Assembly (NCBI GenBank): GCA_963703315.1
Contig: OY969811.1
Coordinates: 416,001-480,000, forward strand
DNA length: 64,000 bases
Source of the DNA: an uncultured cyanobacterium
GTDB taxonomy: Bacteria; Cyanobacteriota; Cyanobacteriia; Pseudanabaenales; Pseudanabaenaceae
Reading direction: 5' to 3'
Both the position numbers and the translations under genes were made by a program. The notes beneath the pieces were generated by a model. It was given only the letters and a program-made list of their open reading frames with translations. It ran no database searches and had not been told where the DNA came from. Below, in pieces: positions 22,220-38,704 of the stretch (position 1 is its first letter; every line of letters begins with the position of its first letter).

Positions 22220-24658
22220 ATGACTAGCTTGACTTTCGCTTCAGAAACATCTAGAAATATCCCCAAGGAACAAGCGTTAGTTCTTTGGTTTGACGAGGTA
22301 GGAATTTCGGATATTCCTCTAGTGGGTGGGAAAAATGCTTCTCTAGGAGAAATGATTCGGCAACTGCAACCCAAAGGGGTAAATGTTCCCAATGGCTTTG
22401 CAACTACTGCCTACGCTTTCCGTTATTTTATTGAGAAAGCAGGTCTAGAAGTCAAACTGCGTGAACTCTTTGCCGATCTCGATATTGAGGACATGAATAA
22501 CCTGCGCGATCGCGGTCGGCAGGCACGAGCTTTAGTTCTCAGCACCCCATTTCCTGACGATCTGCAAATGGCGATCGCTATGTCCTATCAGAAACTCTGC
22601 GATTGCGAGACTTCCTGCGGTAAAGAAGCTGATGTCGCTGTCCGTTCTAGCGCCACCGCCGAAGACTTGCCCGATGCCAGCTTCGCAGGACAACAGGAAA
22701 CCTATCTGAATGTCTATGGTGCGAACGAAGTTGTCGATGCTTGCCATCGCTGCTTTGCCTCACTATTCACCGATCGCGCCATTTCCTACCGTACCATCAA
22801 TGGTTTCGATCATTTCGATGTAGCGCTCTCCGTCGGTGTACAGAAAATGGTACGTTCTGATCTTGCCGCCTCTGGTGTCATGTTTTCTATCGACACCGAA
22901 ACAGGCTTTAAAAATGCAGCGTTAATCACCGCCGCCTATGGCTTAGGTGAAAATGTCGTGCAGGGTGCAGTCAATCCCGACGAGTATTTTGTTTTCAAAC
23001 CCACTCTCAAACAAGGATTCCGTCCCATTCTCGAAAAGCGCCTTGGTACAAAGGAAATCAAGATGGTCTATGACATTGGCGGCGGTAAGCTGACCAAGAA
23101 TATTTCCGTCCCCATTTCCGAACGGGTCAAGTTCGCGATTACCGATGATGAAATCCTCAAACTCGCAGAATGGACTTGTATCATTGAAGATCACTATTCG
23201 GAAGTACGCGGCAAGCTGTCACCAATGGATATTGAATGGGCAAAGGATGGCAAAACTGGTGAGTTGTTCATCGTTCAAGCCCGTCCTGAAACCGTTCAGT
23301 CGCAAAAATCTGGCAACATTCTCAAGAACTACAAGCTGAATGGATCTAGCAATGTCCTGATTGCAGGTCGTGCCGTTGGCGAAATGATTGGTCAAGGCAA
23401 AGCCAACGTAATTCTGGAAGTGAATAACATTGAAGATTTCCAAGCGGGTGAAGTACTGGTCACGAACAAGACTGATCCTGATTGGGAACCCATCATGAAG
23501 AAGGCGAGTGCGATCGTCACAAATCAAGGTGGACGCACCTGCCACGCCGCCATCATTGCGCGAGAAATGGGTATTCCTGCGATCGTTGGTTGCAGCAATG
23601 CTACAGGTGTGATCAAAACTGGTCAGGAAGTCACGATTTCCTGTGCAGAAGGTGAAGAAGGCAAGGTTTATGAGGGGCTAGTTCCCTTTGAAGTAATCGA
23701 AACTTCCCTCGATAATTTGCCTACACTTTCCACCAAAATCTTGATGAATGTGGGTAATCCCGAAGAAGCCTTTGGTTTATCTTCCATTCCCTGCGATGGC
23801 GTTGGCTTAGCCCGTATGGAGTTCATCATTGCTAACCACATCAAAGCCCATCCCCTCGCCCTGATGAACTTCGACACCCTCGAAGACAAAGCGGCGAAAT
23901 GGGAAATCTCCCAACTGACAGCACGCTATGAAAACAAGGCTGACTTCTTTGTAGACAAGTTGGCTCACGGTATCGGCACGATCGCCGCCGCATTTTATCC
24001 CAAGCCTGTTGTGGTGCGAATGTCCGACTTCAAGAGCAACGAATACGCCAATCTCCTTGGTGGTCGCGCCTTTGAACCTACCGAAGAAAATCCGATGATC
24101 GGCTGGCGTGGTGCATCCCGCTACTACGATCCTAAATATCGCGAAGCCTACGGTTTGGAATGTCAAGCCCTGAAGCGTGTCCGCGATGACATGGGCTTAA
24201 CCAACGTGATTCCCATGATTCCTTTCTGTCGCACTCCTGAAGAAGGTCGTAAGGTGCTTGCGGAAATGGAAAAACATGGCTTGAAGCGTGGTGAAAATGG
24301 ATTAGAAGTCTATGTGATGTGCGAAATCCCCAGTAACGTGATCTTGGCGGATGAGTTCTCCCAAGTCTTTGATGGCTTCTCGATTGGTTCCAATGATCTC
24401 ACACAGTTGACCCTCGGCTTAGATCGTGACTCTTCTCTTGTTGCCCATATCTTTGATGAGCGCAATGAAGCGGTTAAGTCAATGGTTCGCACGGTTATTC
24501 AAAAGGCAAAGGCTAATCACCGCAAGATTGGTATTTGTGGTCAAGCTCCTAGTGACTATCCAGAGTTTGCGAAGTTCCTTGTTGAGCAAGGCATTGACTC
24601 CATCAGTCTCAATCCTGATTCTGTCTTGAAGACAATGCTCGAACTCGCGAAAATGTAA
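22220..24658 (+). CDS. ppsA: Phosphoenolpyruvate synthase
   Basis: VGGKNASLGEM, VRSSATAED, GGRTCHAAI and IGSNDLTQ. Confidence 0.97.
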   Translation: MTSLTFASETSRNIPKEQALVLWFDEVGISDIPLVGGKNASLGEMIRQLQPKGVNVPNGFATTAYAFRYFIEKAGLEVKLRELFADLDIEDMNNLRDRGRQARALVLSTPFPDDLQMAIAMSYQKLCDCETSCGKEADVAVRSSATAEDLPDASFAGQQETYLNVYGANEVVDACHRCFASLFTDRAISYRTINGFDHFDVALSVGVQKMVRSDLAASGVMFSIDTETGFKNAALITAAYGLGENVVQGAVNPDEYFVFKPTLKQGFRPILEKRLGTKEIKMVYDIGGGKLTKNISVPISERVKFAITDDEILKLAEWTCIIEDHYSEVRGKLSPMDIEWAKDGKTGELFIVQARPETVQSQKSGNILKNYKLNGSSNVLIAGRAVGEMIGQGKANVILEVNNIEDFQAGEVLVTNKTDPDWEPIMKKASAIVTNQGGRTCHAAIIAREMGIPAIVGCSNATGVIKTGQEVTISCAEGEEGKVYEGLVPFEVIETSLDNLPTLSTKILMNVGNPEEAFGLSSIPCDGVGLARMEFIIANHIKAHPLALMNFDTLEDKAAKWEISQLTARYENKADFFVDKLAHGIGTIAAAFYPKPVVVRMSDFKSNEYANLLGGRAFEPTEENPMIGWRGASRYYDPKYREAYGLECQALKRVRDDMGLTNVIPMIPFCRTPEEGRKVLAEMEKHGLKRGENGLEVYVMCEIPSNVILADEFSQVFDGFSIGSNDLTQLTLGLDRDSSLVAHIFDERNEAVKSMVRTVIQKAKANHRKIGICGQAPSDYPEFAKFLVEQGIDSISLNPDSVLKTMLELAKM

Positions 24659-24694
24659 ATAAAAAAGCGGCGCTTAGCGCCGCTTTTTTTATGA
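24602..24694 (+). repeat. Direct repeat, left copy (ppsA 3' end plus terminator)
   Basis: 93 bp nearly identical to 29387-29480 (4 substitutions and 1 indel by eye). Confidence 0.9.
24661..24690. terminator. ppsA intrinsic terminator
   Basis: aaaaaagcggcgc-tta-gcgccgcttttttt. Confidence 0.85.
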
Positions 24695-24746: not shown

Positions 24747-25004
24747 ATGCCTCTCAATGAGCTTTTACCAACTGTTAGCCAATTAAACCATGAGGATAAA
24801 CTTCGGTTAATCCATTTTCTTTTGCTTGCTGTAGCGAAAGAAGAAGGTTGTAATTTGGAAGCAACACAGGTTAATCCAGAACAAAATCTACTCAATCAAT
24901 TAGCATCAACTCATGCAGTCGTATGGTCGCCTCAAGCTGATGCTCAAGCAGTTACAGCCTTATCAGATCTTTTGAGAGATGCAAAGGAAAAAGCAAATGC
25001 TTAA
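24747..25004 (+). CDS. Small hypothetical protein, translationally coupled to an aspartyl protease
   Basis: 85-aa ORF whose end overlaps the next ATG. Confidence 0.75.
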   Translation: MPLNELLPTVSQLNHEDKLRLIHFLLLAVAKEEGCNLEATQVNPEQNLLNQLASTHAVVWSPQADAQAVTALSDLLRDAKEKANA

Positions 25005-25416
25005 TGGACAACGCTTTAATTTTATCGAGAAAATTGATAGCGCTGGGCGATCAGTCGTTATGCCCTATTTGCCTTTGCGGCTTACTAATGGCAGTCAATC
25101 TATAGAAGTCCTAGCTTTATTGGATACAGGGGCAAGTGTAAACGTATTACCCTATGACATGGGCTTACAATTAGGAGCAGTTTGGGAAAAGCAAATAGTA
25201 AAAATTCCATTAAGTGGCAATCTTTCTCGCAATGAAGCAAAAGGTTTAGTTTTGTCTGGTACTGTTGGAAATTTCTCAAGCACCTTATTCGCTTTTGCTT
25301 GGACTCAATCAAATGATTCACCTGTAATTCTTGGACATATGAACTTCTTTACTGAGTTCAATGTTTGTTTCTATCGCCATGAATTAGCTTTTGAGATTAG
25401 CTCAGTATCAAGGTAA
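24997..25416 (+). CDS. Retropepsin-like (clan AA) aspartyl protease
   Basis: ALLDTGAS and VILGHMNFF motifs. Confidence 0.8.
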   Translation: MLNGQRFNFIEKIDSAGRSVVMPYLPLRLTNGSQSIEVLALLDTGASVNVLPYDMGLQLGAVWEKQIVKIPLSGNLSRNEAKGLVLSGTVGNFSSTLFAFAWTQSNDSPVILGHMNFFTEFNVCFYRHELAFEISSVSR

Positions 25417-25552
25417 TGCGATCACCTAACACACTAAAAAACCTGTAAATTTATTTATCACAAATAAAACAATAATTCAGCAATTATTTGTTAGCTAACT
25501 ATTGACAAAATAGATTTTGCTGTAGTTAAATAAATCAGGACAGAAAATATCC

Positions 25553-25738
25553 AATATTTGGGTATACGTCTTAAGCAGAATACGAGCGCTTCTCAGTTCA
25601 GTGTATATTCATTATTTTGACTTAGCACTAATTGAATGCATTTTGGCAATTATACAAAGAGTACTAGTTCAACATACTGAGTATGCACCGAACTGAGAGG
25701 CGCTTGTATTCTGCTTAAGACGTTTACGGTCAAATATT
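25553..25738 (+). ncRNA. Long stem-loop (64-bp stem, 30-nt loop); candidate structured RNA or RNase III site
   Basis: 25566-25629 pairs with 25660-25723 (54 Watson-Crick, 5 G:U, 5 mismatches); flanking aatatttg/caaatatt also pair; TTGACA at 25502-25507. Confidence 0.65.
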
Positions 25739-25833
25739 CTAGAGAAGTATGCTATCTATGCATAGGCTTTTCGTATATTTGGCAATTTGATATTTCAAGT
25801 CTGTTAAACAATTATTTAACGGAGCTATTTGAA

Positions 25834-26121
25834 ATGCCTAAGCAAATGAATAAAAAACAAAAGGATGCTCTAAAGTATCAACTTGCCTACGTTATAGGGT
25901 TTGGGGTGTCTTGTTTTTGGAAAACTTGTTGTTCTTCGTCTGATGTATTTACGCTTGATGAGCTAACTCTTGATCATCTAATCCCTAAAAGTAAAGGTGG
26001 CTCGAATAACCGAGAGAATTTACGCCTTACCTGTATTCATTGTAATAGGTCGCGCGGTAATAGCTTATTTCCACCTTCACAAAAGTATAGAAGTTCATCT
26101 TTGAACAACTCTGATAAATAG
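25834..26121 (+). CDS. Small zinc-binding HNH endonuclease (95 aa)
   Basis: CFWKTC...LTLDHLIPKSKGGSNNRENLRLTCIHCNRSRGN. Confidence 0.88.
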   Translation: MPKQMNKKQKDALKYQLAYVIGFGVSCFWKTCCSSSDVFTLDELTLDHLIPKSKGGSNNRENLRLTCIHCNRSRGNSLFPPSQKYRSSSLNNSDK

Positions 26122-26129
26122 CTTTTGTG

Positions 26130-26166
26130 CAACTAAAACCTAGATTTTAAATTTAGGTTTTAGTTG
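26130..26166. other. Hairpin between HNH and RNase III genes
   Basis: caactaaaacctaga...tttaggttttagttg. Confidence 0.55.
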
Positions 26167-26206
26167 ATTTAGACAACTATATTTCTAACAAATAAACTCA
26201 ATAAAA

Positions 26207-26887
26207 ATGCATAAACTTTTGATTTTTAATGACGAAAAATTACTTCGTCGTGCGCTTACTCATCGCTCTTTTGTGAATGAAAACTTTGATGAATCTGGAC
26301 ATAATGAAAGACTAGAATTTCTTGGCGATGCCATTCTTAATTTCATTAGTGGAGAATATCTATATGAACAAAACCCTGAAATGGCAGAAGATGAAATGAC
26401 TCGCAGACGTTCTGCTCTTGTGGATGAAAAACAACTTTCTCGATTTGCTACTGAAGTTGGACTAGATTTTAGAATCCGTTTGGGAGAAGGTGCAAAAAGA
26501 GAAGGTGGTTTTACTAATCCTAATATTCTGAGCAGTACATTTGAAGCGGTTGTTGGCGCTTATTACTTAGATAATAAGCGTAATATCGATGTACTTCGTC
26601 CTTTAATAGCACAACTATTTGACTCTGTGCCAAAAGATGTCATGGTTGTTCGCTCTAGTATAGATTCCAAAAATAAACTTCAGGAATTTGTGCAGGCAAA
26701 TGGAGAACCAAAGCCAGATTATAAAACTGAGCAGGTCGGCGGAATGTCTCATGCTCCAGAATTTCTAGCTAAAGTTTATGTCAATGGCAAAATTTGTGGT
26801 GAAGGGAAAGGACGTAATAAGAAAGAGGCAGAGAAAGAAGCTGCGGCTGACGCACTAGCTAAACTAAAAAAGCGGGGATTTCTTTAA
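26207..26887 (+). CDS. rnc: Ribonuclease III (accessory paralogue) with dsRBD
   Basis: ALTHRS, NERLEFLGDA, STFEAVVGAYYLD and dsRBD GKGRNKKEAEKEAA. Confidence 0.93.
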   Translation: MHKLLIFNDEKLLRRALTHRSFVNENFDESGHNERLEFLGDAILNFISGEYLYEQNPEMAEDEMTRRRSALVDEKQLSRFATEVGLDFRIRLGEGAKREGGFTNPNILSSTFEAVVGAYYLDNKRNIDVLRPLIAQLFDSVPKDVMVVRSSIDSKNKLQEFVQANGEPKPDYKTEQVGGMSHAPEFLAKVYVNGKICGEGKGRNKKEAEKEAAADALAKLKKRGFL

Positions 26888-26934: not shown

Positions 26935-27129
26935 GGCGATCCCTGTTTGATATTGAGAGAATAGACGATTAGGTTTGTTGGTTATGAGGGGAGATCGCTG
27001 TTTGGTTTTGAGATTTAGGCGATCGGGTTTATGGGTGGTGAGGGGCGATCGCTATTTGATTGGGGAATAGGCGATCGGGTTTATGGGTGGTGAGGGGTGA
27101 TCGCTGTTTGATTTTTATGGAGGGGCGAT
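26935..27129. repeat. HIP1-anchored tandem repeat cluster 1
   Basis: Alternating units GGCGATCGCTGTTTGATT... and GGCGATCGGGTTTATGGGTGGTGAGG, ~53-bp period. Confidence 0.85.
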
Positions 27130-27465
27130 TCAACTTAAAATTACTAATATCGACTCAGATGGATTGCTGTCTAGCAAATAAATTTGTTCCTTATATTTAG
27201 TGATTAGTGCTACGAGAATATCACGATTACAATTGCCAATTCTCAACCAGACAAGCTTCGGCGGATGCCCATAAAGCAAACTCCGTTGATAAAAATCTGA
27301 ATCCTTGGAAACTATTGTAAATCCATTGTCTTGAGCATATTCCCAAACATCCTCATCAGGAAATCCCTTCAATCCGCAATCACGAACGTGCATACTCTCT
27401 GGAAAATCTACAGATAATATACGCGGCAACTTTGGAGATAAATTCTCATCAAACAGCAACTTCAT
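27130..27465 (-). CDS. DUF5615 PIN-like putative toxin
   Basis: MKLLFDENLS, IVSKDSDF and PPKLVWLRIGN. Confidence 0.85.
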   Translation of the reverse strand: MKLLFDENLSPKLPRILSVDFPESMHVRDCGLKGFPDEDVWEYAQDNGFTIVSKDSDFYQRSLLYGHPPKLVWLRIGNCNRDILVALITKYKEQIYLLDSNPSESILVILS

Positions 27466-27688
27466 AGGGAACCACTGTTAAACTGCGATCGCGATCAGCT
27501 GCAAAAGCAAAACAAGCCTGTATATCCGCAAGGGTTAAATCAGGAAAATCATCTAATACTTCGTCAACAGTCATCCCACCGCCAAGATAGTCAAACACAT
27601 CTGATACGGCAATGCGTGTATTAACTATACATGGCTTACCACTACGAATATTCGGACTGATGCGTATGCGATCGCGATATTTTTTCAT
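27449..27688 (-). CDS. DUF433 putative antitoxin
   Basis: PNIRSGKPCIVNTRI and DFPDLTLADIQAC. Confidence 0.85.
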   Translation of the reverse strand: MKKYRDRIRISPNIRSGKPCIVNTRIAVSDVFDYLGGGMTVDEVLDDFPDLTLADIQACFAFAADRDRSLTVVPYEVAV

Positions 27689-27748
27689 AACCAAGATTTG
27701 CACATAACTAATTTCATAATAACAGCGTCCTTAAAAGAATTTAGAGAT

Positions 27749-27828
27749 TGAGGGGCGATCGCTGTTTGATTTGGGGGGAAGAGGCGATCGGGTTTTAGGG
27801 GTGATGAGTGGGCGATCGCTGTTTGATT
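27749..27828. repeat. HIP1-anchored repeat cluster 2
   Basis: Same units as 26935-27129. Confidence 0.85.
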
Positions 27829-28107
27829 TTAAGCAACCTCACTCAAAGCGTCACGAATCACCTCATCACTCACACCGTGCCGCTTTAAGCTCTCAATAAA
27901 TATAGAAACAGTATCCCCATCTAATCTCTCAAGATCAGCACGAAGCCCTTGACCAATATAAGCACGAACTAAAGGCTGATATCCAGAAAATCCTAACAAT
28001 GGTGCAACTTTTTTCAAATCTTCAATTACATCCTCAGGAATACGGATTGTCACCGTTGCCATCGGACGATTTCGATCCAATCGTTTTTTTAAAGCTTCAG
28101 TTTTCAT
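27829..28107 (-). CDS. BrnA/CopG-like antitoxin
   Basis: VTIRIPEDVIEDLK...GYQPLVRAY ribbon-helix-helix pattern; overlaps the BrnT gene. Confidence 0.75.
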   Translation of the reverse strand: MKTEALKKRLDRNRPMATVTIRIPEDVIEDLKKVAPLLGFSGYQPLVRAYIGQGLRADLERLDGDTVSIFIESLKRHGVSDEVIRDALSEVA

Positions 28108-28393
28108 AATATTCATGCTCCTTGCGAGTTGCTTTTCTTGCAGAAATAATCCGAACTAGATCGTTCTCCCGTTCAACATAAACAACGTAAAGAAGATTCC
28201 ATCGTTTATCTAAAGCAATCACAGCGTCTCGTTCCTCATCATTACGACTTGCATCAACTACTACTAAAAATGGATCAAAAAAGGCTTCAGTAGCTTGCTG
28301 AAATGTCACACCATCATGATTAATCTGATTAATTCGAGCCTTCTCCTCATTCCAAACAAATTTAATCCCGTTCAGTACAAAATACACATCCGT
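28097..28393 (-). CDS. brnT: BrnT family toxin (start uncertain: ACG 28393, GTG 28387 or TTG 28411)
   Basis: FVWNEEKARIN..NH.GVTF...RIISARKAT. Confidence 0.8.
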   Translation of the reverse strand, partial: TDVYFVLNGIKFVWNEEKARINQINHDGVTFQQATEAFFDPFLVVVDASRNDEERDAVIALDKRWNLLYVVYVERENDLVRIISARKATRKEHEYYEN

Positions 28394-28400
28394 ACCGTAT

Positions 28401-28430
28401 ATTTTAGCCAAAGCGTATTTACGTTGTCAA
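28401..28430 (-). promoter_or_regulatory. Sigma70-type promoter of brnT
   Basis: TTGACA-N18-TAAAAT on the minus strand. Confidence 0.6.
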
Positions 28431-28460
28431 TACAAATTTATCCAAAGATTTTGTGCTGGT

Positions 28461-28579
28461 GGTGATCGCTGTTTGATGTGGAGATTTAGGCGATCGCTGT
28501 TTGATTTGGAGGGATTGGCGATCGGGTTTTGTGAGTTGTGAAGGAGCGATCGCTGTTTGATTTGAGGGAATAGGCTATC
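28461..28579. repeat. HIP1-anchored repeat cluster 3
   Basis: Same units as clusters 1 and 2. Confidence 0.85.
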
Positions 28580-28837
28580 TTATGCCACACTAGCCATAAG
28601 CCTAACTGATGGTCTATCCGCACGAGTCGGCAAACGGAAATAACTCATCGGCAAAGTGACAACTGAAACTGTATTACCCAGCATATCGAAAAACTCAACA
28701 CTATAACCAGTTTCCAATCCAATGACATCATGCCGTTCTACCACCGTTCCAATATCCCCAGCATAAACTCCCTCATCAGGTAGATTAGTTAATAGAATTA
28801 CATCAGAATAAAGTGGAAAATTCATTGCAGCCTCCAA
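28580..28837 (-). CDS. DUF4926-like protein
   Basis: V.LL.NLP..GV.AGDIGTVVE....GYSVEFFD. Confidence 0.75.
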   Translation of the reverse strand: MEAAMNFPLYSDVILLTNLPDEGVYAGDIGTVVERHDVIGLETGYSVEFFDMLGNTVSVVTLPMSYFRLPTRADRPSVRLMASVA

Positions 28838-28843
28838 ATATTG

Positions 28844-29176
28844 CTAATCGGGAACTAAAGTAATTAAGCGAGCAAAATCTGTACCTTTATCTATTTGCCA
28901 TACCGTCTTAACAAATAACTGTCTATTTATCGGAGTCAGTAAATTTGCACTAATTTCATATCTCACACCATACGCAGTTTCTTTAACTACATTAGCATCT
29001 ACCCCAAGATGAAATTTACGAATGTCGGCTTCTAACTGTTGCCAATTTTCTAGTGAATATCCAAACAAAATTAATAATTTAGCCTTTGTGCCACCGCGTT
29101 TATGCTCACTATTGAGTAGATATTCAGTTAACTTTGACGGCTCAATGACTGCGCGATCGCTATTCGGAATTCTCAT
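28844..29176 (-). CDS. DUF6883-like protein (putative toxin partner of DUF4926)
   Basis: AVI..SKL.EYLLN.EH..GG.KA...GY...N and TVWQID....RLITL.P. Confidence 0.7.
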   Translation of the reverse strand: MRIPNSDRAVIEPSKLTEYLLNSEHKRGGTKAKLLILFGYSLENWQQLEADIRKFHLGVDANVVKETAYGVRYEISANLLTPINRQLFVKTVWQIDKGTDFARLITLVPD

Positions 29177-29224
29177 GTATTTTAGCGCTTATCGCTTTAC
29201 TTGAGCCTATCATAATCAATGCGT

Positions 29225-29314
29225 GCGATCGCTGGTTAATTGGAGATTTAGGCGATCGGGTCTTATGGGTGGTGAGGGGCGATCACTGTTTGATATTGAG
29301 GTTTAGGCGATCAC
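29225..29314. repeat. HIP1-anchored repeat cluster 4
   Basis: Same units as clusters 1-3. Confidence 0.8.
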
Positions 29315-29315
29315 A

Positions 29316-29480
29316 TTTGAGCCTACTGAAGAAGACTCCATTGATTGTCGAACTCCCGAAGTTTGAGCAAGGCACTAAGGCACTCGATCAGTCTCAATCC
29401 TGATTCTGTCTTATAGACGATGCTCGAACTCGCCAAAATGTAAATAAAAAAAGCGGCGCTTAGCGCCGCTTTTTTTATGA
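29316..29480 (+). pseudogene. Eroded duplicate of the ppsA 3' region plus terminator (right direct repeat)
   Basis: Colinear fragments matching ppsA 24071-24099, 24227-24242, 24582-24593 and 24602-24694. Confidence 0.8.
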
Positions 29481-35500: not shown

Positions 35501-35904
35501 CGTTCACTCAGATTATCTTTGATTTCTCGCGAAACGACTAATGATTGTTGATAAAAATCTACAGCTTTTTGAAGTTGTCCAAGACTATCATAGACTAAAC
35601 CTAAGTAGTTAAGGCTTTGACCCTCTACTTTCCGATCTCCATTCTTTCGACTTATAGTTAGGATCTTTTGAAAGGATACTGCTGACTGAGCTAGATTACC
35701 CTGTTGGTAGAATGTAGTCCCCTCTTGAAAAATGTTGTTGTTTGATGTATCTTCAGAAACACTCAATATTCGAGAAGTAGAAATAATCTCGATATTATCT
35801 TTTCCTAATACAGTCTCTTGAACTTTTTTGAGAATCTCTAATGTCTTTGAACTCTTATCATTATAAGCTCTTGCTAAGTCGCTTACTAATGGTTTTAATG
35901 AAGC
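32587..35904 (-). pseudogene. C-terminal part (TPR array plus CHAT-like domain) of the IS-interrupted AAA_35-TPR-CHAT gene
   Basis: Frame open up to the IS630 junction; 42-aa TPR repeats; LHFATHG; LSTNETG where CHAT domains have LSACET; PYYWAAF. Confidence 0.85.
34345..35340. repeat. Eight near-identical 126-bp coding repeats (kinesin-light-chain-type TPR)
   Basis: gggaacgtttatatagtggttcggc at 34419, 34545, ... 35301 with an exact 126-bp period. Confidence 0.95.
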
Positions 35905-35906
35905 TA

Positions 35907-36862
35907 TAGCTATAGCCAGCTAGGTTAGGACATAAAATAGAAAGAAACCGAGACATCTGAGCAACAACAATGCCAAAACCATATAGTTACGATTTGCGTC
36001 AAAAGGTAATGCAAGCAATCGAAATGGATGGACTGAAGAAAAATGAAGCCAGTCAATTGTTCGGGATTAGTCGAAACACAATCAACTTGTGGTTTGAGAG
36101 ACGGGAAGAAACAGGAGATATAACCGTGAAGGCAAGAGCATCGTCTAGTCAGAAGCCCAAAATTAGCGACTGGGAAAAGTTTCGAGAATTTGTCAAAGAG
36201 CATGAGGATAAGACCCAAGCAGAGATGGCAGAATTATGGGGAAATATCAGTCAAAGGTCTATATCACGAGCGTTAAAACAGATAGGATTTACCCGTAAAA
36301 AAAAACTTATGGTTATCGGGAACGAGATGAAGAAAAACGTAATGAGTTTCGCACAGCCTTAGGCGATCCAAAAGCATCCCACTTAGTTTACGTTGATGAA
36401 TCAGGTATGGATGAACGTGATAATTATGGATATGGATGGTCTGCAAAAGGTGAGCGAATTCATGGACTCAAAGCAGGTCGTCGCCAAGGACGTATTAATA
36501 TGATTGCGGGATATCGAGATGGACAACTAATTGCCCCCTTTACAATTAAAGGCTGTTGCAACCGCAACGTATTTGAAATCTGGTTAGAATCTTGCTTGAT
36601 TCCAACGCTCAAGGCTGGGCAATGGGTAATTATCGATAATGCTACTTTTCATCATGGTGGACGCATTCAGGATTTGATAGTAGCAGCAGGATGTAAGGTC
36701 GTCTATCTACCTCCATATTCTCCAGACCTTAATCGCATTGAGAAATGTTGGGCTTGGCTGAAATCTCGCATCCGCAAACTCCTACGTGATTCAGCTAATC
36801 TTCATGATGCTATTGACTCCGTTCTTGCCCTTGCTGCGTCCTAACTTGACTGGCTATAGCTA
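35907..36862 (+). mobile_element. IS630 family insertion sequence (956 bp)
   Basis: 25-bp TIRs (22/25 match); TA duplicated at 35905-35906 and 36863-36864; HTH orfA plus DDE orfB. Confidence 0.93.
35970..36844 (+). CDS. IS630 transposase, two ORFs joined by a -1 frameshift at an A9 run (36297-36305)
   Basis: MPKPYSYDLRQKV; the -1 frame reads KTYGYRERDE...YVDESG...IDNATFH...YLPPYSPDLNRIE. Confidence 0.88.
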
Positions 36863-38704
36863 TAACTTGCTTTGAACCTGTGTTAATTCACTCATAGCAT
36901 TACTTTGCTCTAGCTTTACTCTTGCTACTTCAGTTCGTGCGGTTTCTGCCTTTTTAATAGCCTCTTCAGCTTGCCTATCTGATTTGTCTAAGTTATCCCT
37001 AGTTGCTATCAGATCTTGATTTACCTGTTGGAAGTTTTCTTCAGAAGACTGTTGCGCTAACTCTGCCTCTTGTTGGGCTTTTCTTGCTTCCTCAGCTTGT
37101 TTTTCCGCTTGTTGCTTATTTTGAATCGCTATTTGAGAACTTTGATTAGCATCCTGAATTTGCTTCGCCAATCCATTTTTTTCTGACTGTAAATGATTCT
37201 TTTGTTGTTCTAAATTGGTTTTTTCTGCCTTAATCCCATTCAGTTGTGCTTGAGCATTGCCTAAATCTAGATTTTTCTGACCCGCAAACACTGTTGCAAT
37301 AGCTGCTCCTGACAGGGATAGACTGAGAATGATTAAACTAAAGAGAATTTTTTTGTTAGCTTTTCTGTGAGCTTGAGATAGAACTTCATTCGCTTCCTTT
37401 TCGGCTGTGAGAGCAAGTTGAATATTACGCTTCTCTGCATTTCGACTATCACGCAAAAACTGCTCATCTTCATCACTCAGTCGTTTCCCCTTTGCCCAAT
37501 CTTCTGCACCCTCTAGAGCTTGTCCTCGCAGTAAAAAAGACTCTTTCTGTTCATCACTTCCTACTTTCCAAGCTCTAAAAGCTTCCGCATAAAACTCTGG
37601 ACGCAAATCCGCTAACTGACCCTCCACCCAAGCATTATTAAACACCGCCCCATAGATCGGATTATAGGAAACCAACCGCCCATCCCGTCGCACCACCAAC
37701 CCCGTCAACCGCAACTTCGATCGCTCCTCACTGCGATCATCTTCCAACTCCCCATCCGCCAACACCTGCTGATAGCAACCCAACATCCGCCCCCGCAGCT
37801 TCTCCTCCACACTCAGCACGCGATCCCTAATCGTCGTCAAATGTGGCGGCGCATCCTGCGATTCCCAATTCGTGACAATCCGTTCCTGTACTAAATTCTC
37901 AACCCAATCCGCAATATTTTCAGGCGGTGCGATTCCTGCTAACTCCTTCTCCATCATTCCCAACAATCGCTGAATCAGAAAAGGCTGTCCACCCGTCCAT
38001 TTCACCGCCTCAGCTAGATAATCCTGTGGATTCGCCACCTTACTCGCTAAACCCTGCATCAAGGGCAAAGCCTCCGTCAGTGTAAACCCCGCCATCTCCA
38101 CCGCATAGCCAATATTAAATGCCGAAGTATTATGACTCTGAATCAAATCCGTCGGTGTCGCCACTCCCAAAAATGAAAAAGTGAGGCGGTTATAGTCAGG
38201 CTTAGTGGGACGATCTTCAAAAAACGATCGCACTAAACCAAAGAAATCATCCATGCCAAACTTGAGACTCAACAGGCGATCTATTTCTTCCACAAAAATC
38301 ACAATCGGCGTATCAATCTCTTGCAACACCACTGTCTCAATAAATTCCGCAAAGCGTTGCACAGGTGACAGCAATTCTCGTTCCCTAATCCAGCTCCGCA
38401 AATCAAACTTACTTTTTAAATCCAGATCTCCCACCAAACTGCGAATTGCACTGGCATACCACTGCTCGCAAGTCACCTCCACGCCAATCTTCTGCGGATC
38501 GATCGTCGCGCATACAATCCCCTCCGCTTGCAACTTATGCGTCACCCGCACCCGCAAACTCGATTTCCCCATCTGTCGACAGTTAAACACATAGCAATAT
38601 TTCCGCTCCTTGAGTAACTCGTAATAGTCGCGATCGCATTGACGCTCCACATAACTAGGCGCATCCGCAGGGAGACTACCACCAACTTGATAATTAAAAG
38701 TCAT
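36860..38704 (-). pseudogene. N-terminal part (AAA_35 NTPase, TM, coiled coil) of the IS-interrupted gene
   Basis: YQVGGSL, RQMGKSSL, FVEEID, FNIG and WTGGQPFL; its stop codon lies in the IS end. Confidence 0.85.

Follow-up and report, generated by a model that had tools for sequence, protein, structure and literature searches.

A conserved, apparently undescribed mRNA leader with a long stem precedes exchangeable nuclease genes followed by rnc in many cyanobacteria

Background

Why would a long hairpin, a minimal nuclease gene and an RNase III gene follow one another in the same orientation in a cyanobacterial genome? The question is raised by a 64,000-nt stretch of DNA (the window) from an uncultured member of the Pseudanabaenaceae (contig OY969811.1, positions 416,001 to 480,000). 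A sequence-only reading of the window had proposed that the hairpin, a 95-aa HNH gene and the RNase III gene (rnc) form one module, in which RNase III processes the hairpin either to keep the nuclease silent or to release a small RNA. We compared this locus with its relatives, and the three-part module proved to be real, with nuclease and rnc following the leader across searches made from three sides. The hairpin belongs to a conserved, apparently undescribed mRNA leader that stands before interchangeable nuclease genes and rnc. How such a leader may work, and which known systems it resembles, is considered below.

The leader hairpin

The hairpin in the window (25566..25723, + strand) is selected as RNA. 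Its arms, 25566-25629 and 25660-25723, pair over 64 positions as first described. Of these, 54 are Watson-Crick pairs, 5 form G:U on the + strand, 2 would do so on the - strand and 3 are mismatched in other ways; with G:U counted as a pair, there is no interruption in the first 34 positions, and the loop holds the small stem reported earlier (AATTG at 25630-25634, CAATT at 25647-25651). The fold has a z-score of -13, and none of 100 shuffles was equally stable. Over the whole 4.57-Mb genome, a motif-free stem score gave the hairpin 111 on the + strand and 93 on the - strand; higher scores were reached at three other sites only (G000:C1:3076170-3076620, 2716001-2716450 and 2957356-2957778), none of which matches the leader profiles. 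Two-sided changes affect 38 of 56 pairs in 19 HNH-type leaders and 42 of 64 pairs in 18 leaders of a second type, values that 0 of 500 shuffles reached for either type. In the real structures 93% of cells were paired vs. 29-48% in slid controls, where both consensus structures were derived from the alignments being tested, which favours them somewhat. On the sense strand, G:U outnumbers A:C by 546 to 232, with a G:U excess in 70 of 76 loci. The expectation of covariation in the stem, and the preference of the sequence-only reading for a + strand RNA structure over a DNA palindrome, are borne out by these counts.

The same data bear on whether the repeat is instead a DNA-level element that lies upstream by chance, such as a cruciform, an attC-type site or a remnant of a miniature inverted-repeat transposable element (MITE). 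An inverted repeat within an island rich in short repeats might suggest as much, but we regard this explanation as highly improbable, given the G:U excess, the single copy of the hairpin in its genome and its fixed position after a -35 box and before a nuclease gene in 40 of 40 loci. The dispersed MITE with many genomic copies, which the earlier reading had named as a result that would count against it, was not what we found. Sites of the attC type have core motifs at both ends, lie downstream of a cassette gene and are less than about 140 bp long. By inspection only, the ends of the hairpin lack such core motifs; it stands behind a promoter and upstream of a gene, and 68 of the 76 stem spans exceed 150 nt.

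From base to base the stem spans 82-341 nt in the 76 loci, while the motif at its base, GTCTYA...TRAGAC (GTCTTA at 25568-25573 and TAAGAC at 25716-25721 on the + strand of the window), is kept. A variable span on a constant base is expected of a substrate rather than of a fixed scaffold, and the fold, the stem score, the covariation and the G:U bias mark the stem as a predicted substrate of RNase III. Conservation of the base motif is partly circular, since the motif served as the anchor; changes in it, where found, are compensatory. Variant leaders with the motif changed on both sides occur at loci L253, L255, L238, L203 and L209, the L253 leader being a short-stem form of that at L255. Near-perfect stems of ~150-170 bp, unusually long for bacterial mRNA leaders, occur at L060, L062, L063 and L074. 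The stem lengths form no clean 22-nt ladder. Rfam gave only sub-threshold matches of miRNA type on the window stem and none at gathering score in 6 other loci.

Occurrence of the module

The unit recurs in different chromosomal contexts across Pseudanabaena, where a DNA similarity search detected the leader in 13 of 48 genomes, that of the window included. A second family, apparently the Nostocaceae, has a related leader in at least 28 of 121 genomes, and the order promoter, hairpin, nuclease, RNase III recurs across several cyanobacterial families. When loci were collected by their leader (one locus per genome, the window's own genome excluded), all 40 had a nuclease gene followed by rnc (17 HNH, 22 NYN and 1 YoeB-like), which confirms both the linkage of HNH and rnc elsewhere and the hairpin upstream of them at other loci. 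When loci were collected by rnc instead, 74 of 110 had an intact nuclease gene with the leader (42 NYN, 31 HNH and 1 YoeB), 4 had the leader and a broken nuclease gene, 30 had neither, and 2 had an intact nuclease gene, the contig ending less than 500 nt upstream. All 74 testable intact nuclease genes before an RNase III of this clade therefore carry the leader. A locus counted as having a leader if it showed a motif pair with a stem, scored at least 60 for its stem or was anchored by hand (seven loci), and intactness was judged by profile coverage; doubly fetched loci, the broken or partial rnc genes L058, L075 and L096 and the paralogue L269 were dropped before counting. A stem score of at least 60 precedes 66 of the 74 intact-nuclease loci vs. 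none of 122 other RNase III genes (controls: 0/85 non-cyanobacterial, 0/20 viral, and 0/12 and 0/5 other cyanobacterial). Searches were also started from the nucleases. For NYN, in the second family, all 30 loci returned had a stem score of at least 70 and rnc, and 4 further matches had no locus; for HNH, 30 loci included 14 with leader and rnc, 3 with leader and a HEPN-RNase III fusion and 1 cut by a contig edge.

The content of the slot between leader and rnc changes. A FastTree phylogeny built from 124 RNase III proteins shows HNH, NYN and empty loci intermingled inside a single clade (support 0.94), a pattern suggestive of repeated exchange and loss. Empty loci at L226, L260, L235 and L240 retain one leader arm or a nuclease stub. 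Outside cyanobacterial chromosomes, a plasmid collection held ordinary RNase III genes only, at less than 60% identity. Viral contigs gave RNase III matches of 28-39% identity, one 39-residue piece excepted, with a long stem in 0 of 20 testable cases, and an HNH search of viral contigs gave 34 short generic matches. At least 5 cyanobacterial-type loci were present among the 80 matches listed in a metagenome scan.

The exchange of effectors behind a common leader also speaks to the second branch of the original proposal, that RNase III frees from the stem a small RNA that binds or guides the HNH. Such an RNA, bound to the nuclease, might act as antitoxin, scaffold or guide. Several duplexes could indeed arise from perfect stems as long as ~170 bp, the base motif is highly conserved, and the HNH protein is generically like the HNH domains of Cas9 and IscB. 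However, leaders that are ~90% identical up to the stem base precede genes of unrelated folds, NYN at L205 and L212 and HNH at L211, L213 and L215; stem length varies fourfold, and the arms evolve by covariation, not by spacer turnover. No target was found for them: the arms match nothing in 50,697 phage records or elsewhere in their own genome, and a 14-mer of the stem recurs elsewhere in its own locus at only 1 of 76 loci. The IscB model scored 33 bits vs. a cut-off of 175. A small RNA partner for the nuclease is accordingly improbable in our estimation, and a small RNA that guides the HNH, as the sequence-only reading had entertained, is disfavoured.

The encoded proteins

The HNH gene (25834..26121, + strand) occupies the exchangeable effector slot and encodes, as claimed at the outset, a 95-aa HNH protein (PF01844, E 9e-12); by Pfam it is a McrA-like nuclease with zinc-binding cysteines. 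Residues H48, N62 and N71 and three cysteines are invariant in 24 sequences. A confident AlphaFold model (predicted local distance difference test score, pLDDT, 85.7) only weakly resembles small HNH nickases and Cas9 HNH domains, and its closest PDB match is a small HNH nicking endonuclease (E 0.0025). A sister subfamily of small HNH proteins stands alone at loci L405-L411, with no leader and no rnc. The NYN partners keep D24, N27, D88 and D114 in 17 sequences and match the NYN domain of MARF1. Often they carry a C-terminal domain that resembles OST-HTH/LOTUS (ESM Atlas score 0.87, a lead only), for which Pfam gave no noteworthy match. A gene for a YoeB-family toxin fills the slot at L008:1121-1441 and at L049, and no antitoxin open reading frame (ORF) was seen between leader and rnc there.

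The rnc gene (26207..26887, + strand) encodes a 226-aa RNase III with a catalytic domain and a double-stranded RNA-binding domain (Pfam; TIGR02191, 223 bits vs. a cut-off of 166). The motif ERLEFLGD is kept in 107 of 108 clade members and E113 in all members of a 16-sequence alignment, throughout which the position that corresponds to D114 of the E. coli enzyme is serine. Judged by their catalytic residues, the HNH, NYN and RNase III proteins look active. Two other RNase III loci in the genome are 55% and 22% identical to the window gene, which is thus a third copy. The earlier description of the enzyme as extra and dedicated therefore fits here, but not in general, since 4 of 5 other genomes checked have only two RNase III genes, one of them from this clade, and since members of the clade often occur without leader or nuclease (30 of 110 loci). 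The clade is present in 69 of 401 genomes of the phylum and in 46 of 46 of one family (f30), mostly at recurring chromosomal sites; in f30 the gene often follows genes for a SigF-type sigma factor, chlD and a Uma2 gene. As alr0277 of Anabaena PCC 7120 encodes the group 3 sigma factor SigJ (PMC2779892, in the portion available), Alr0280 probably belongs to this clade. That protein cleaves double-stranded RNA (dsRNA), and its gene could be inactivated, according to the accessible part of PMC10989914. The PCC 7120 gene numbering seems to leave little room for a leader and a nuclease gene.

Fusions of RNase III occur as well. Swt1-like HEPN-RNase III-dsRBD fusions at L219, L224, L256 and L257 belong to this RNase III clade and have no leader. 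More distant HEPN-RNase III fusions at L391, L392 and L401 follow the leader and HNH, with a further rnc right behind in two genomes. At L349:3636-5402, a 588-aa protein combines two stretches resembling RNase III with a NACHT-associated NCH2 domain at its C terminus, and is flanked by vWA/phosphatase-like and kinase-like genes.

Promoter, transcript and predicted switch

The TTGACA that had been noted upstream of the stem is present at 25502-25507 (+ strand). We take it as the -35 element of the module promoter because it is conserved, and not because of a generic promoter scan, which did not call the site; 73 of 76 leaders have a TTGAC at a distance of 55-110 nt upstream of the stem base. 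From the spacing, transcription would start at ~25537-25540. The generic scan found 6 promoter-like matches vs. 6.2 expected, which is chance level, and no terminator, either as part of an antisense RNA gene, of which none was found, or between leader and rnc. Among RNA runs, those with small shares numbered 24. RNA-library contigs span the leader, the HNH gene and the start of rnc in 2 of 4 runs, as contigs that cannot show a single transcript. One contig starts at 25544, near the predicted start, a mere hint since contigs do not give start, strand or level.

The leader so delimited may contain a switch. Its 5' end (25538..25551, + strand) is a predicted anti-anti-Shine-Dalgarno element that would pair with 25789-25805 in a duplex of -10.5 kcal/mol. 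After the long stem comes a second, shorter hairpin (25729..25783, + strand, with approximate boundaries from minimum free energy (MFE) folds), variable in sequence and at the same position in those HNH-type leaders viewed. It is followed by a putative expression platform (25789..25824, + strand), in which the target of the 5' end overlaps a hairpin at 25801-25822 predicted to sequester the Shine-Dalgarno (SD) sequence GGAG at 25821-25824. The HNH start codon, at 25834, lies 110 nt past the long stem, in agreement with the distance first estimated. Across loci, the sequence with which transcripts are inferred to begin (GACAGC, GGCAGC, GATAGC and variants) finds its complement, GCTGTC, GCTGCC or GCTATC, 25-50 nt before the nuclease start. 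In 56 of 68 loci this target overlaps the anti-SD arm of a small hairpin, the arm predicted to pair with the SD region. The native 5' end ranked within the best tenth of its own shuffles in 44 of the 68 loci and in the better half when set against foreign 5' ends in 50. Opening the SD cost a median of 5.2 kcal/mol in the full leader vs. 7.6 after a cut in the 3' arm of the stem, 7.9 with the first 18 nt deleted and 7.5 with the first 18 nt shuffled. The cut added more than 1 kcal/mol to this cost in 40 of 68 loci, the deletion did so in 43 and the shuffling in 41, whereas opening became easier in 1, 2 and 1 loci, respectively. Start codons were picked independently of the 5' end for these costs; the folding relies on inferred transcription starts and assumes that the cut 5' fragment leaves. 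By these calculations the uncut leader is predicted to favour translation of the nuclease and the cut leader to disfavour it.

We arrive at a model that we hold to be slightly on the probable side, in which cutting of the leader by RNase III silences the nuclease, and the nuclease would thereby report loss or saturation of RNase III. One promoter would give an mRNA that carries the leader with its long dsRNA stem, the nuclease gene and rnc. As long as the leader is uncut, its first ~15 nt would pair with the 5' arm of the hairpin that otherwise buries the SD, and translation would be permitted. When RNase III cuts the long stem, the 5' end would detach, the anti-SD hairpin would refold, the mRNA would gain a processed end and nuclease synthesis would be low. 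If RNase III were inhibited, depleted or saturated by other dsRNA, uncut leader would accumulate, and the nuclease, and probably more RNase III, would be made. The data establish gene order, conservation, covariation of the RNA, exchange of effectors and co-loss, and folding predicts the switch and its sign; three further elements of the picture are what we infer, namely cutting by RNase III, a growth-inhibiting output and a phage trigger. The silencing branch of the sequence-only reading thus survives as to the link between leader and nuclease (74 of 74 testable genes) and a predicted switch-off after cutting, while its direction is given by folding only.

Several observations weigh against this model. 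In 6 of 76 loci rnc is immediately preceded by an extended -10, and a weak promoter-like match is present at 26170-26198 in the window, so that rnc may not always share the leader transcript. No shift in SD opening was seen in 27 of 68 loci, and in the window copy, where the cost rises from 5.6 kcal/mol in the full leader to 7.7 after the cut, the shift is only ~2 kcal/mol and the MFE fold of the full leader still buries the SD. Column-wise covariation of the 5'-end pairing gave no information, several rows being misaligned or having a wrong start codon. The linkage searches overlap and the genomes are related, so their counts are not independent trials. In the HNH-first set, 10 testable relatives, including the close intact homologue L389, have neither leader nor rnc, and 2 loci have the leader but no rnc within 1.5 kb; the HNH is therefore not always leashed, and a linked rnc is not always needed. 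Finally, RNase III autoregulation through the 5' untranslated region (UTR) was not seen in Synechococcus PCC 7002, as far as the available text of PMC5829567 goes, a strain whose RNase III genes may or may not belong to this clade.

The buried SD of the full window leader would also suit a switch of reversed sign, in which cleavage or binding by RNase III activates nuclease translation, or in which the stem works through another dsRNA-binding factor. RNase III can stimulate translation, as with lambda cIII (PMC5829567, portion available), and if the cut 5' fragment stayed paired, the fold prediction would fail. Removal or shuffling of the 5' end, however, lowers the cost of opening the SD in only 1-2 of 68 loci and raises it in 41-43, and we give the reversed sign little credence.

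A further alternative is a homeostatic RNA-decay operon, with the leader as an autoregulatory operator of rnc and a non-toxic nuclease, as partner or passenger, co-induced to help clear structured RNA or dsRNA when RNase III is overloaded. RNase III would cut in the same way, but nothing would act as guard or toxin. This would agree with the small number of RNase III genes per genome noted above, with the presence of the clade throughout f30 at mostly recurring sites, with the existence of leaderless HNH relatives, and with the OST-HTH/LOTUS resemblance of the NYN partners, an architecture proposed as a stand-alone RNA-degradation system (PMC5499597, in the part accessible). But the leader tracks the nuclease and not rnc: 30 rnc loci without an intact nuclease gene have no leader and only 4 keep it. 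In addition, the predicted switch targets the SD of the nuclease, and one slot carries the gene for a YoeB-family toxin. We therefore consider such an operon unlikely, though less so than the reversed sign or the small RNA.

Cutting and silencing by RNase III, as in the model we prefer, could also serve defence. It is possible, although we advance this tentatively, that the module represents a new class of guard system, in which a dsRNA decoy monitors RNase III activity or dsRNA load, and inhibition or saturation by phage would let a DNase or RNase effector abort infection. Stem length, from ~30 to 170 bp, would then tune the sensitivity of a protein-free dsRNA sensor within an mRNA leader. 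Given the switch, a phage as its trigger has in our view roughly an even chance.

Comparison with known systems

In the E. coli rnc operon, rnc is found with era and recO. That context is absent here. As in rncO-type leaders, a conserved RNA stem lies upstream of, and co-oriented with, an RNase III gene, and is predicted to be cut by that enzyme with lowered expression as the result; such 5' UTR autoregulation has been described for rnc of E. coli, for S. aureus and for absB of S. coelicolor (PMC5829567, portion available). Unlike those leaders, however, the present one is separated from rnc by a nuclease gene and kept only with that gene, its stem is much longer (up to ~170 bp), and its output is a predicted SD switch on the nuclease. 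A second parallel is with txpA/RatA and yonT of B. subtilis, type I toxin-antitoxin pairs in which RNase III silences the mRNA of a foreign, potentially harmful toxin gene by cutting dsRNA formed on it (PMC3531473, accessible part). Here the dsRNA is intramolecular, the effectors are nucleases and not small membrane peptides, and rnc travels with the module. The small hydrophobic peptide of type I toxin-antitoxin systems is replaced by HNH, NYN or YoeB nucleases. A type III system, in which a tandem-repeat RNA antitoxin precedes the toxin gene, was likewise rejected: among the 20 largest direct-repeat families none falls in the leader, and the leader matched itself in BLAST only as an inverted repeat.

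In the type V system GhoST, the antitoxin is a GhoS-family endoribonuclease and the toxin a membrane peptide. The module resembles it in that an endoribonuclease encoded at the locus would neutralise its partner by cutting the mRNA, and the pattern of co-loss fits this logic of partners, though leaderless HNH relatives and loci without rnc weaken the fit. It differs in having RNase III in place of GhoS, a leader stem as the target and an exchangeable nuclease domain instead of a membrane peptide as the partner; in addition, other RNase IIIs of the host may substitute. IscB proteins of OMEGA systems combine RuvC and HNH domains and act with an omega/HEARO RNA. Both have, in cyanobacteria, a structured non-coding RNA ahead of a gene that encodes an HNH domain, but the present protein is a bare 95-aa HNH without RuvC, and its leader is a simple long stem shared with NYN genes; the IscB score fell far short, as given above, and neither the window region nor 6 other loci matched Rfam at gathering score. 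PADLOC-DB 2.0 has no model for the RNase III, and yielded only weak PtuB/REase-type hits for the HNH and a partial, generic LabA-like hit for the NYN. By analogy, then, the module may work like RNase III autoregulation combined with silencing of a toxin gene and resembles type V logic, while fitting none of type I, III, V, OMEGA or the PADLOC systems; this agrees with the earlier reading, which did not recognise the arrangement as a named system. Swt1-like HEPN-RNase III-dsRBD fusions (PMC3710099) and NYN-OST-HTH proteins (PMC5499597) likewise connect, in cyanobacteria, a nuclease of the conflict type to RNase III or to the handling of dsRNA; the portions of these two texts that were available note no leader RNA, no HNH- or NYN-rnc operon and no switch.

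No description of the leader-nuclease-rnc module was found in the literature, with coverage mainly of open-access articles, and the main text of a 202-genome screen for RNA structures in cyanobacteria, as far as available, mentions no HNH, NYN or rnc (PMC12873609). The leader would be a cis-regulatory RNA with covariation that is missing from catalogues and common among cyanobacteria, filamentous ones included, and it offers a testable reason why these bacteria keep several RNase III genes. The outcome of existing RNase III knock-outs in cyanobacteria may depend on whether the strain still has leader and nuclease. If the switch is real, a single transcript would act as a compact sensor of RNase III activity with a nuclease as its output; such a sensor could let bacteria detect dsRNA or sabotage of RNase III, and might be put to use as a portable reporter of that activity.

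Genomic surroundings

A short A/T-rich palindrome (26130..26166, no strand assigned) lies between the HNH gene and rnc and is conserved in the genus. The module itself is situated in an accessory island, as had been supposed: a 70-nt duplication of the ppsA 3' end flanks 4.8 kb at both borders (24597-24666 and 29382-29451). The two copies come with an identical terminator-like palindrome, a pattern as after site-specific integration; no integrase ORF was seen within the 4.8-kb island. Directly upstream of the module, PDC-M52A/B (24747-25416), a candidate defence pair in PADLOC, encodes a small protein and an aspartyl-protease-like protein. Homologues of the pair also lie upstream of the module at L008 and L009, and of PDC-M52A alone at L003 and L050. 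Opposite-strand pairs in the island comprise DUF433/DUF5615, BrnT/BrnA-like and DUF4926/DUF6883. Between consecutive toxin-antitoxin-like gene pairs, at 26935-29318, there are short repeats rich in GCGATCGC, and comparable GCGATCGC-rich clusters occur elsewhere in the genome, for example at C1:2189600-2193500 and C1:4510000-4522000. Farther downstream, at 35891-36878, the window contains a two-ORF transposase-like element with 41-nt terminal inverted repeats.

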